Part shown: positions 9,001-13,293 of the stretch, one piece after another
Layout: each line of letters starts with the position of its first letter
Position numbering within the stretch: position 1 is the first letter of the stretch
Virus record (IMG/VR): IMGVR_UViG_2711768048_000003
Reading direction: 5' to 3' (one strand)
Source of the DNA: a virus
Taxonomy: Duplodnaviria > Heunggongvirae > Uroviricota > Caudoviricetes
DNA: 13,293 nucleotides
Made by a program: the position numbers

Positions 9001-12000
9001 CGCGCATGGTAACCTGGCGACCCTGCATTTTATCCTGTAGGTCAAAGTATTTTTCGGGCCCGAGACTGTTCATCCCCAGGTGATCGACAAATTCGCCGAA
9101 CTGCCGCGGATTCTGTTGGTACATCTGAGCGACGTCATGAGGATTAACGCCAACACGAGCTAACTCACCGGCGTTGTTTTGCAGCCATGATTGCATTGCT
9201 TCTGGAGACGATGACGCAAGGCGTGCGCCAGCAGCTAAGGTGCCGATAGAATTACGCTGCTCTTCATCAATGAATCCCATGCCTTTACGAACGGATTCAA
9301 TCTGGTCTGGATATTGAGTAGCCAACTGACGCAAAGCACCGCGATCACCAGACGCATAAGCATTAGCGTACGCCTGCTGAAATTCTTTCTGCCGCTGAGC
9401 CTGCTTTTCCTGCTGAAACACCCCCGCAATACCAGAAAGACCTTGCAAAGCTGTCAGCCCAACATTGTTAGCGCCTGAACGCTCAATATCATTGTTCTGC
9501 CTGATAAGCTGAAGCGTGTTGCCGATGTCATTTACGCTCGGAGCGTTTGAGTTGATACCACCGATACCAGCCAACAATCCGCCATTTGTTCCCTGCCAAG
9601 TAGCCATGATTACCCCTTAAAACAACGATCCAAGCAGGCCAAGTCCGCCGCCAATTGCCGCACCTAATCCAGTGCCAAGTCCGGGAACAATAGAGCCAAG
9701 AGCAGCGCCAGTCATAGCCCCTGAAGCTCCGCCGCTAATTGCTGTCTGAAGGCCTGATGGTTTATTGGCGTTAGCAGCGGCAAGTGCTGCGCTTTGCTGT
9801 GCAATGCTGCTCATGTTGTTGGCGTACGTCTGCCCGGCGTTTGCCTGACCTTGCAGCGCACCAAGCCCAACGTTTGCCAGATTGTTGTAATTGCTCATCT
9901 GATTTGATAACCAAGACTGACCGAGTGTCGGCGCGATCGTAGCCAGTTGATTGCTTGTGGCTGTCGAACCAAGTCCACCCGTCGCCTCCGCAGCAGCAAG
10001 ACTCTGGTAACGAGCCTGACCTGCAAGGTCTTTATACTGCTGAGAGTTGTAATACTGATTAAGTGCCTGCCCCTGACCTTCTAAACTGGAAAGGTTCTGA
10101 AGCTGGTTAACATACTGCTCCGCAAGCGGCGTGAACGGAGCAAGGTTTTTCATGATCGTCTGCCACTGCTGATTTTGCAGGTCTGCTGCATACTTCTGAG
10201 CTTCTGCGGCATACTTTGCGCTTTTATCAGAACTGCCACCTTTCCCGCCTTTTTCAGGGCAATAAGGTTCCTCGCCGCGCAGTTTTCTGCCCAGCTTAAA
10301 TACATATAACATGGCTATCTCCCGTGATTCAGGAATTCGATTAGTTCTTCGCGTGTAGCACTGTAAAATGTCACGTCATCCACGCCTTTGAAGTATTTCT
10401 TGATGGTTCCTACACGATTAAGGCCAATCATTGCGCAGTACATCTGCCCGTGGCGGAATTTGCGCGCAGCGAACGATGTGACACACTGAACAGTGGTGTT
10501 AGTCAGAATGTATCGCCAGAACTCCAGTCCGATTTCCTTGCTGAATCCACGAACCTCTGGCAGGTACATGGCGTGGCAATCGAATGTAAGCGGCTGAATT
10601 TCCTGATAGTAAACAATGCCGCCAAACTGACCGTGCACGTTAACCTCAAAGTAACGGCATTCAGGCTTGTAGTCGTATCCATCACCGTTGTTGCTTCCGG
10701 CAATAATGTCAGGGTGATTTCCGACTGCTTCGATCAGGTCGATGTTTCGCGTTGGTTTGAACTGAATCATTACTGCTCCGCGATTATCTTGATGGTTGTG
10801 GCAGTAAACGCCGCCCCATTTGACTGAATGGTTAACGTGCTGCCATTTGTGGCAAGAAAGCCGTCTTTATCCACGCTGAAGAACGTAGCTAACAAGATGT
10901 TATCGGTTGTTGTCGCCGAGTTGCGGCTGCTTACCAGTGTGTCAGGAACAGAGCCGGAAAAGGTTAGCTGCATTGACCTGTTGGCGGTTCCGCTGGGCCA
11001 CGTGCCGACAATCGACAGCTTGAAGAGCAGTGTTTTGTTCTCGTTGAACACAACCATCTTGTTGTTAACGGTGTCGAAGAATGGTGCCAACGTGCCGGAT
11101 GACGGCGTGAGCGTTTTCAGCAGGCTAACAAGGTTGGTCGGCGCTGTCGGGATGGTTACAGATACGCCAGAGTAAACAACCTCTGACTTCTTGCGAGTAG
11201 TGGCATACTCAAGAGCATCGATGCGCGTTTCATGGTCTGAAACCTGCGACTCCAGCGACTGAACTCTGGTATCAAGAGACGCAATATCGCTTTCATTCTG
11301 AGCGATTCGCGTTTCATGTTCCTGAAGAGTTGATTCTGCCTGGCTGATTCGCTCCTCATGATTAACAAGCGTTGCTTCCGCAGCAGAAATTCGCTGCTCA
11401 TGGTCAGCGAGAATCACATCCTGCTCATCGTTCCTGACCTGTGCATCATAAGCGCCCTGTCCGGCCTCGTTGGCCTTGTTAGCCACGTTACCAACATCAG
11501 TACCCTGTGCGATAACGTAAAGCAGATACGACTGCGAAAAGATATTGCGTGGAAGGACTGATGTGTCGAGCCGTGTAGCCTGAATGATTACCGGCACATT
11601 GAGATTCGAATCCGCCATTACTCAATCCTTATCTTAGCGCCAGACAGAGTGACAGGTGACTTCGTGATAACGCGCAATTTGAAGCCGACATTTTTCCTGA
11701 TGCGCCCGACTCGCTTCCACAAAACGCGTTTGTCGTAAACGAACGGTTCATTCTGCTCAATCATCTGCTCACGCCCGTAATTTATGCCGTCAGTGGTTGC
11801 AGAGAGGAACAGGCGGTCGGCGTACTGCGCAATCCAGGTTGAATTAAAAGCATTGTCATTTCCTCGCACGATGTCTTAGCCACCGGATATCCCACAGGTG
11901 AGCCGTGTAGTTGAAGGTTTTTACGTCAGATTCTTTTGGGATTGGCTTGCGTTTATTTCTGGAGCGTTTCGTTGGAAGGTATTTGCAGTTTTCGCAGATG

Positions 12001-13293
12001 ATGTCGGTGATACTTCGTCGCTGTCGTCTCATTCGTACCTCCTGTCGGTAAATCTGACACCCTGACCAATACCGGAGAAACAGGAGAAGAGTTCTCGGTA
12101 AATATCTCGCTTGAGTCATCAATGCGATATCGGGCGCGTCCTGACGCTTCAACGATTTTATGGTGGCTGGAACAGAGTGAAGAAGCCAGAAAATCGCTAA
12201 CCAGCAACACTCAAGAGCTTTCAACGGCTCTTTCATGGTTATCTGAATTCATCATAAAGAACGCCAACCACAAACTCGTTCAGGTTTGGGGGAATGGAGC
12301 ATCATTTGACTGCGTTATTCTCCGCAACAGTTATTCGCTGACAGGGCAGCCAGTTCCGTGGCAGTGGTGGAATGACCGCGACGTAAGAACAATCGTCGAA
12401 CTTGGGAAGGTAATAGGATTCGATCCTAAGCGAGATATGCCATTCAAAGGAACTCGCCACAACGCGCTTGATGATGCCATCCACCAAGCCAAATACGTTT
12501 CAGCGATCTGGAAAAAGTTAGCTAAATAATCAACAGGAGAAAACCATGCCAGCGCCTCTGTATGGTGCGGACGACGCGCGCCGCTGTTCCGGCAATTCCG
12601 TATCGGAGGTGCTGGATAAATTCAGAAAAAACTACGATCGAATAATGTCTCTACCGCAGGAAACGAAAGAGGAAAAGGAATTTCGCCACTGTATATGGCT
12701 TGCAGAGAAAGAAGAACGCGAGCGAATTTACCAGACATCAATCCGACCATTCCGCAAAGCCACATATACCCACTTCCATGAAATTGACCCGCGCCTGCGT
12801 AATTACCGATCACGCTATGGCGCTATCAGTAATGACTGAGGAATTTACCATGAGAGGACTTGCATACAATCCCGGAATTCTTCCGGCAGAAATGATTATT
12901 CGCCAACGCGTAAAGCCAATGCCATCGAGAGAGGAATTGCTTAAGAGAAATTCTTTTCCATCAGTGAATCAAAACAAATATCTGAATGCGATGTGGCTGG
13001 ATTTGCCCCTATATTTCCAGACACCTGTTATCACTTAACCCATTACTGGCCTGCTGCCGCAGATATTCCCGTGGCGAGCGATAACCCAGTGCACTATGCG
13101 GATGCCATTCGTTATAATGCTCGAACGCCTCTGCAAGGTTCTTTGCTGCCGTTAACCCGTCTGGTTTAGGCATGATACTGATGTAGTCACGCTTTATCGT
13201 TTTCACGAAGCTCTCTGCTATGCCGTTACTCTCCGGACTCCGCACCGCCGTGTTCTTCGGTTCAAGCCCCAACATCCGGGCAAACTGCCGTGT

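Follow-up and report, generated by a model that had tools for sequence, protein, structure and literature searches.

The 13,293-nucleotide stretch of DNA taken from IMG/VR virus record IMGVR_UViG_2711768048_000003, called the window here at its full length, raises the question of why a phage late gene module should stop abruptly within 11618–12121 and give way to early-type genes on the opposite strand. An open reading frame (ORF) map, nucleotide searches against phages and E. coli genomes, and Pfam identified the window as one arm of a P22-like prophage. Its late block is homologous and syntenic with P22/Sf6-type phages (Pfam P22_gp7, Phage_P22_gp16, Inj_translocase, Phage_tail_NK, Head_binding and Phage_stabilise), and Sf6 genes 8–10 are 96.5% identical to it at the nucleotide level. 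In the Sf6 gene table and in L027, an intact P22-like prophage of E. coli strain SB0258h1, the needle gene is followed on the same strand by gp10, gp4, coat, scaffold, portal and terminase. An earlier note on this DNA had proposed a defective P22-like prophage in which the late module ends abruptly against a fragment of the early region. This proposal held: the cut lies inside gp10, and the partner is a set of early-left genes. We conclude, with a probability of about 90%, that 11618–12121 is the scar of an internal deletion in a P22-like prophage (Lederbergvirus, Sf6/HK620-type) inserted at the lambda attachment site between ybhB and ybhC. The prophage has a lambda-type int/xis/att module, and the host chromosome is of the E. 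coli type.

Two junctions between gp10, the nin region and an exonuclease gene

Late-gene homology of the Sf6/HK620 type ends at 11827–11843, depending on the relative, inside gp10, which agrees with the abrupt end described before. The 83-codon frame found mechanically at 11618–11869 (minus strand) extends to a GTG at 11869 inside nin-derived sequence, and its first 12 residues are out-of-frame nin-region sequence read from that GTG. Over its last 71 residues it can be aligned to the C-terminal end of Sf6 gp8 (472 amino acids), and residues 9–83 match positions 395–469 of 469 in PF11134 (Phage_stabilise, the P22 gp10 family; E = 1.5e-41). The earlier note had described a frame with no proper start, and the frame does exist with its start codon in foreign sequence. 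The possibility of a complete conserved small gene was also checked, and both the Pfam match and the Sf6 gp8 alignment identify a 3' gene fragment.

The approximately 250 bp reported between the two blocks also exists; it is not a spacer, but a 241-bp island of nin-region sequence with 99.2% identity to Gally, HK629 and HK630, and the same island matches many other prophages. The 58-amino-acid ninE within it is called in L017, L021, L023 and L028. A 126-codon frame at 11856–12236 (minus strand) is a by-product of the second junction, across which ninE is extended upstream, antisense to the exonuclease gene; other assemblies call the 58-amino-acid ninE there. The oppositely oriented early-type genes are the early-left (pL operon) genes for an exonuclease, abc2 and DUF2737 on the plus strand, as had been claimed, except that the first of them is itself truncated. 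The exonuclease is 98.5% identical to mEp235 gp30 from codon 30 of 182 (window 12068) and lacks codons 1–29. The lost N-terminus, MNHLMVDLETMG..., holds the first acidic DxE motif of DEDD exonucleases (DLE, Exo I motif), and the longest ATG-started ORF left (12122–12529, 135 codons) begins at an internal Met. The truncated genes retained at the breakpoints are therefore gp10 (71 of 472 codons), ninB (last 43 nt) and the exonuclease gene (minus 29 of 182 codons).

The joints were mapped base by base against gp10 of L005, L004 and Sf6 and against the nin region of Gally. A single breakpoint at the join of late and early genes had been supposed; a real breakpoint was located by alignment with P22-like relatives, but there are two of them with the nin island in between. 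At the first junction (J1, gp10 fragment to nin island), gp10-type sequence continues up to 11832 (...GCGTACTGCGCAA) and nin sequence begins at 11831 (AATCCAGGTTGAATT...). The strict overlap is 2 bp (AA), lying inside an imperfect patch of ~15 nt in which gp10 reads CAACGCCAG-TTGAA and nin reads CAAATCCAGGTTGAA. At the second junction (J2, nin island to exonuclease gene), nin sequence continues up to 12071 (...CCTGACCAATA) and exonuclease sequence begins at 12068 (AATACCGGAG...), the intact exonuclease gene reading TTTGACCCGAATACCGG. The microhomology here is TGACC..AATA (nin, TGACCAATA; exonuclease, TGACCCGAATA), with the crossover within AATA.

Neither J1 nor J2 has an insertion sequence (IS) end, an att-like site or a long repeat, and phage sequence is joined directly to phage sequence. 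A repeat search of 11400–12500 found nothing beyond chance-sized matches, the joints sharing 2–9 bp only, and in a promoter and terminator scan of 11300–13000, sigma-70 consensus sites were absent and terminator-like sites no more frequent than by chance. An IS-mediated adjacent deletion was rejected, as the only IS lies 930 bp off, at 12998, and most lineage members do not have it; recombination between two prophages, whether homologous or site-specific, was rejected because each joint has only 2–9 bp of microhomology. The microhomologies at both joints are short and imperfect, which suggests illegitimate, microhomology-mediated joining, either as one replication-type event with two template switches or as two successive deletions. 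The single event is slightly favoured over two independent deletions, given the collinearity of the retained pieces and the small size of the island (241 bp).

Relatives were found by look-up of the exact 83- and 135-amino-acid products and of the gtrC-type protein. J1 and J2 occur base for base in more than 20 independent assemblies (NCBI isolates, Logan, ENA, JGI, metaSPAdes "NODE" and MEGAHIT "k141" contigs). The same architecture is present in GCA_958307015.1, GCA_001894385.1, GCA_001575355.1, GCA_022546315.1 and GCA_047730665.1, in several Logan assemblies, in ENA and JGI metagenomes and in one IMG/VR contig. Scans of IMG/VR returned one contig only, which carries both joints; the metagenome scan for the exact J1 pattern also returned one, OGSN01000111.1, which is 100% identical to the window over 9537–12997 (3461 nt), both joints included. 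Identical copies of the remnant proteins are listed in ~190–240 blocks of the collection of assemblies; the lineage is widespread and the deletion fixed in it. Neither joint was found in any of 5,426 complete RefSeq E. coli genomes, and the exact patterns are absent from the GTDB species representatives. A chimeric contig had been raised as an a priori possibility in the earlier note, and misassembly was checked across these assemblies. They come from different projects and assemblers, some with IS or intron differences elsewhere, and assembler chimeras form at long repeats, whereas these joints share 2–9 bp; the chance that the junction is an assembly artefact is negligible.

Attachment sites, orientation and extent of the deletion

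The window begins at the base next to the stop codon of host ybhB, a gene that in strain BL12 ends one base before the match. The sequence GCTTTTTTATACTAA, which we take to be the lambda att core, is matched exactly at 91–105, and 87–360 is 96.4% identical to lambda 27470–27742 (core, P arm and sib region), the hairpin in this interval being presumably sib. A second core in the same orientation lies between int and ybhC (L009 14736–14750), followed by ybhJ and ybhI. In IS-free relatives, the right arm consists of early-left (pL-operon) genes of unknown function, xis (72 amino acids) and a 356-amino-acid lambda-type int, and its xis-int-attP segment (L009 13300–14750) is 98.4% identical to lambda. 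The element measures ~16.75 kb between the cores and sits in the classical lambda attB, with host flanks 99.0–99.5% identical to E. coli. It is a podovirus-type prophage with an essentially authentic lambda integration module.

A single contig (L028) runs from bio-ybhB through gtrABC and the late block to the needle, ninE and the truncated exonuclease gene, and two others (L009 and L017) run from gtrC/gtrB, where the look-up flank stops, through xis and int to ybhC-ybhJ. The missing morphogenesis genes were sought elsewhere in the contiguous prophage, and none is in the gene lists of these three contigs. Since gp4, coat, scaffold, portal and terminase are all lacking between the two att cores, the claim that the prophage cannot make capsids stands; lysis, Q, replication and repressor genes are absent from the same lists.

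The window itself runs off into an IS, of which 100% identical copies are annotated as IS3 family transposase and 96–97.6% identical copies as IS3-like element IS2 family transposase. IS-free lineage members all diverge from the window exactly at 12997/12998, and the IS is absent from the lineage loci extending past the site (L006, L009, L011–L022 and L028). The contig of L023 (GCA_022546315.1) ends 19 nt into the IS and probably shares the insertion.

The gene order of an intact prophage explains the strand change. L027 has the order tailspike, arc, gp16-like, gp20, gp7, gp14, needle, gp10, gp4, coat, scaffold, portal, terminase, lysis and Q, continuing with nin (ninF, ninE, ninB), replication, cII and cro, then cI and N on the opposite strand; in window orientation, needle to cro lie on the minus strand and cI and N on the plus strand. 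In L003 and L007, N/cIII/kil/erf/ssb, exo, abc2, DUF2737, xis and int are on the plus strand. The pL operon is thus naturally transcribed opposite to the late operon in this phage type (L027, L003, L007). Because the gp10 fragment, the nin island and the exonuclease gene keep the order and strands of an intact prophage, the event was a collinear internal deletion and not an inversion. A chromosomal inversion between prophages at argW and att-lambda was considered since the E. coli relatives of the left arm adjoin intS/argW. It was ruled out: base 1 abuts ybhB, the lambda core and P arm adjoin gtrA, and the stretches from the bio flank to the junction (L028) and from gtrC/gtrB to ybhC (L009 and L017) each lie on a single contig.

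The distance from the gp10 breakpoint to the nin island is 13.7 kb in L027 coordinates, and the second gap comprises >6 kb to N and ~5 kb from N to the exonuclease gene (~11 kb), for a total loss of roughly 25 kb as estimated from relatives. The first loss, from gp10 to ninE (~13.7 kb), would have taken most of gp10, gp4, coat, scaffold, portal, both terminase subunits, the lysis cassette, the Q-type antiterminator and the distal nin genes. The second, from the ninB 3' end to codon 30 of the exonuclease gene (~11 kb), would have taken the replication genes, cII, cro, repressor, N, kil, cIII, erf and ssb.

The element might instead never have been one phage, with a resident lambda-like prophage contributing int, xis, abc2 and the exonuclease gene, an incoming P22-like phage contributing gtr to gp10, illegitimate recombination joining both, and the nin piece coming from either. 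The nearest relatives of the right arm are siphoviruses such as mEp235 (97.5%), those of the left arm are Sf6-type podoviruses (96.5%), and the nin island is common to both kinds of phage, as such an origin would predict. However, lambdoid and P22-like phages are mosaics that share modules, and Bas106 and HK620 carry nin together with exo or abc2 modules. Both att arms are of the lambda type and the P arm adjoins gtrA, as expected for one integrated genome, and the three segments stand in single-prophage order and orientation. More events would be needed than for a deletion. We consider this two-source origin, in either version of the nin piece, very unlikely. A phage satellite (phage-inducible chromosomal island, PICI; capsid-forming cf-PICI; or P4-like) was rejected because the element genes and Pfam hits include no repressor, primase, rep or ori module of its own, only the Mnt/Arc-type repressor, and the gene lists no terS, pac/cos or capsid-size genes. 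The satellite trait that is present is the integrase with att sites (356-amino-acid int, 72-amino-acid xis and both cores). The P22 pac site is carried by the small-terminase gene, and the region of that gene in the parent type falls in the deleted segment (L027).

Retained genes and their decay

Table 1. Features of the window (positions in the 13,293-nucleotide stretch).
Feature	Position	Strand	Remarks
Lambda-type attR	87–360		att core, attP P arm, sib/tI-like hairpin with T-run at ~251–293
gtrA	450–812	+	full length; ORF; Pfam GtrA_DPMS_TM on identical L028 product
gtrB	809–1729	+	full length; ORF; Pfam Glycos_transf_2 on identical L028 product
Serotype-specific gtrC-type gene	1729–3249	+	full length; E. 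coli hit annotations
Tailspike, P22-type head-binding domain and beta-helix	3287–5458	-	Pfam Head_binding on identical product, called 707 amino acids
Mnt/Arc-family repressor	5499–5792	+	Pfam Repressor_Mnt 8.7e-15, Arc 1e-14
gp16-like ejection protein, SLT domain	5882–8275	-	full length versus intact relatives
gp20-like ejection protein	8276–9607	-	full length versus intact relatives
gp7-like	9617–10312	-	full length versus intact relatives
gp14-like, DUF2824	10315–10770	-	full length versus intact relatives
Tail needle, Sf6-type knob, 282 amino acids	10770–11618	-	full length; Pfam Phage_tail_NK 7e-117; 96.5% nucleotide identity to Sf6 gene 9
gp10 (tail hub / Hc3) 3' fragment	11618–11832	-	last 71 of ~472 codons
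J1, gp10 fragment to nin island	11831–11832		base-by-base comparison
nin-region island, 241 bp	11831–12071	-	99.2% identity to nin region of Gally, HK629, HK630
Start of ORF downstream of ninE, first 23 nt	11831–11853	-	Gally annotation
ninE, complete, AGGAGG ribosome-binding site upstream	11856–12032	-	Pfam NinE 1–58/58, 7e-44
ninB, last 43 nt	12029–12071	-	Gally annotation
J2, nin island to truncated exonuclease gene	12063–12071		base-by-base comparison
3'-5' exonuclease (Rv2179c-like, DEDD family), 5'-truncated	12068–12529	+	Pfam positions 30–177 of 177
abc2 (anti-RecBCD protein 2)	12546–12839	+	full length; Pfam Anti-RecBCD_p2 1–97/97, 3e-63
DUF2737 gene	12850–12997	+	cut 5 codons before end by IS insertion; Pfam 1–48/53
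IS2-family (IS3-like) insertion sequence end	12998–13293	-	runs off window; strain- or subclade-specific

The tailspike, needle, ejection proteins, mnt and gtr operon look as intact as the earlier note had stated, with 11 of 11 genes from gtrA to the needle at full length (Table 1). The minus-strand block 5882–10770 contains the ejection proteins and head-completion genes, and its 797- and 443-amino-acid proteins have the same lengths in L027. An SLT lytic-transglycosylase domain is present in the 797-amino-acid gp16-like protein. Its counterparts in Sf6 (gp13) and several E. coli relatives have 665 amino acids and lack that Pfam match. The 506-amino-acid gtrC-type protein had no Pfam match, and no tRNAs were found in the window.

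Two P22-like prophages with full-length gp10, L029 at argW and L030 at another chromosomal site, encode an identical gtrC-type protein; gtrA/gtrB accompany it in both, as does a tailspike product likewise called at 707 amino acids. The serotype-conversion module thus remains in circulation on phages that look complete. In L029, an HNH/NUMOD4 endonuclease gene separates the needle gene from gp10. In P22, phase variation of gtr by Dam/OxyR involves several paired GATC sites. Window 200–450 has a single GATC site upstream of gtrA, so that arrangement is not evident here.

The earlier note had left two explanations for the intact genes, very recent decay or selective retention, and the comparison of lineage copies favours the former and leaves the latter without support. 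Seventeen copies differ from the window by 0–3 single-nucleotide polymorphisms (SNPs) over ~10.9 kb, in which intact ORFs are expected without selection because the divergence is so low. The nine distinct SNP events comprise 7 non-synonymous changes (one of them nonsense, gp20 Q37* in L024) versus 2 synonymous. Five of the nine (G147D, N166N, G196C, H424P and Q37*; L009–L025) fall in gp20, a gene covering 12% of the sequence compared. In L006, L013, L015 and L026, gp20 carries at 9536/9537 the 3' end of a group II intron (Rfam RF00029, 51–65 bits). Four of the five gp20 SNPs and the intron site are within 515 bp of each other, a clustering noticed post hoc. The intron is on the strand opposite to gp20, with domains V–VI covered, and the contigs of the gut-metagenome copies end there (L006 12939–13020 and L013 41–127). 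L012 and L019 both have an early-left ORF of unknown function divided into two, and mobile elements have already entered both gp20 (the intron) and DUF2737 (the IS2-family element). The observed changes look neutral or damaging, like recent neutral decay. Att-proximal genes would have survived because internal deletions removing the harmful centre leave the ends (gtrABC to needle; abc2 to int), and too little time has probably passed since the event for point decay.

A domesticated module, in which use by the cell keeps gtrABC, tailspike, needle and ejection genes under purifying selection, would account for the same intact genes. Possible uses are O-antigen modification and exclusion, a recombination reservoir for incoming P22-like phages, and a helper-dependent mobile element. 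The full-length set of 11 genes is consistent with this, as are the intact att cores, int and xis, and a lineage common enough for identical proteins to appear in ~190–240 blocks; gtr clusters on prophage remnants do stay functional. At 0–3 SNPs per 10.9 kb, however, intact ORFs are expected anyway, and the changes are mostly damaging (7 versus 2 SNPs, gp20 Q37*, the group II intron and IS2 in DUF2737). The element has no replication, regulatory, packaging or capsid-remodelling gene of the satellite kind, the breakpoints cut through three genes, and the late operon is without pR' and Q. In addition, the P22 tailspike and needle cannot assemble without portal, gp4 and gp10. Retention under selection is therefore improbable in our judgement. 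Slightly less probable still is that the promoterless late block is neither silent nor neutral, with gp20 expressed and selected for inactivation (for example, as a toxic membrane-channel ejection protein) or the block from tailspike to needle engaged in exclusion or as a recombination reservoir. The excess of mutations in gp20 is a weak signal of this, and counts of exact proteins give a slight deficit for gp20 (190 blocks versus 202 for the gp16-like protein, 204 for gp7 and 240 for the needle).

We thus retain an internal deletion followed by recent neutral decay, and several points weigh against this account. The exact parent phage was not found, the arms being 94–99% identical to different phages, and the deleted sizes are for that reason estimates from relatives. 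No intermediate with only J1 or only J2 was seen in the 5,426 complete E. coli genomes, GTDB representatives, IMG/VR or the one J1 metagenome scan, which bears on the choice between one and two events. The silence of the late genes is presumed from the loss of the known promoters and from the negative consensus scan, the scan being weak evidence. Weak purifying selection on gtrABC or the tailspike may also remain at so few SNPs, most lineage loci not covering gtrA and gtrB.

Related remnants and consequences

The late block and its order (tailspike, Mnt/Arc, gp16-like, gp20, gp7, gp14, Sf6-type needle and gp10) are shared with Sf6, HK620, Gally, Kapi1 and L027 at 94–97% nucleotide identity, and the nin island is 97–99% identical. 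Those phages differ in carrying ~25 kb between gp10 and the pL-operon exonuclease gene that are missing from the window, and an argW-type intS, whereas the window element has the lambda int/xis/att module. With lambda, the element shares xis, int, P' arm and core (98.4% identical), the core, P arm and sib region (96.4%) and the attB between bio/ybhB and ybhC/gal; in the remnant, however, this module is joined to a podovirus late region, and the deletion has taken pL, N and cII, by which int and xis are driven in lambda.

Among remnants, CPS-53/KplE1 of E. coli K-12 is a lambdoid/P22-related element that likewise keeps an att-proximal gtr operon and integrase/excisionase with the lethal and morphogenetic centre lost. 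It lies at argW and carries intS, yfdGHI (gtrABS) and torI; E. coli hits to the window are annotated yfdG, yfdH and intS. It differs in its argW site and its breakpoints, whereas the window remnant is at att-lambda and has a complete block from tailspike to needle and very little point decay. A second remnant, L010 (Logan ERR119421, 9400–10100), is a P22-like one at argW, between yfdC-intS and csc/dsd genes, in which gp7 is joined directly to the same exonuclease gene on a TGA microhomology. Its exonuclease breakpoint is 5–8 nt upstream of J2, and the called product is the identical 135-amino-acid protein. In contrast to the window, the partner is gp7 and not ninB, two exonuclease bases (CG) missing in the window are kept, and the tailspike and O-antigen gene are different. 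L010 is an independent event; centre-removing deletions therefore recur, which supports the view that they leave the att-proximal ends in place. A hot spot for breakpoints in the exonuclease gene was considered and downgraded, as look-up by the 135-amino-acid product only recovers truncations in the first 47 codons (~140 nt), where a chance coincidence has a probability of ~0.1.

The element is a standard cryptic or "grounded" prophage and an ordinary case of prophage decay. Remnants of this general kind are the subject of a review (PMC6379469). The literature search turned up general reviews and papers on P22-like phages, with no description of this remnant among them; it does not seem to have been described before, and nothing about it is unexpected.

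We infer the following consequences from established lambda and P22 biology. Gone from the element are the repressor, cro and N, the promoters pL and pR, the Q-type antiterminator together with pR', kil, the lysis cassette and the genes for replication and the head. Because these genes and promoters are gone, induction, replication, lysis, packaging, particle formation and killing of the cell should be impossible. The late genes would be left without their only known promoter. Both att sites are intact, but excision is unlikely, since pL and cII no longer drive xis and int; the remnant is probably locked in place. Of the genes at the scar, ninE is whole but stranded, and a catalytic motif is missing from the exonuclease fragment; the junction itself presumably has no function. 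Normally, gtrABC and mnt have their own promoters, and they may still be expressed.

For annotation, the region should be labelled a defective P22-like prophage at att-lambda, with gp10, ninB and the exonuclease gene as pseudogene fragments and not as "hypothetical proteins", and release of this phage by the strain is not to be expected. The junction sequences are exact markers usable for tracing this E. coli lineage in isolates and gut metagenomes. Intact-looking leftover genes are no evidence of selection in so young a clade. The locus provides a base-resolved example of prophage disarmament, in which one or two microhomology-mediated deletions remove the harmful centre and the att-proximal cargo (gtrABC and tailspike) stays.

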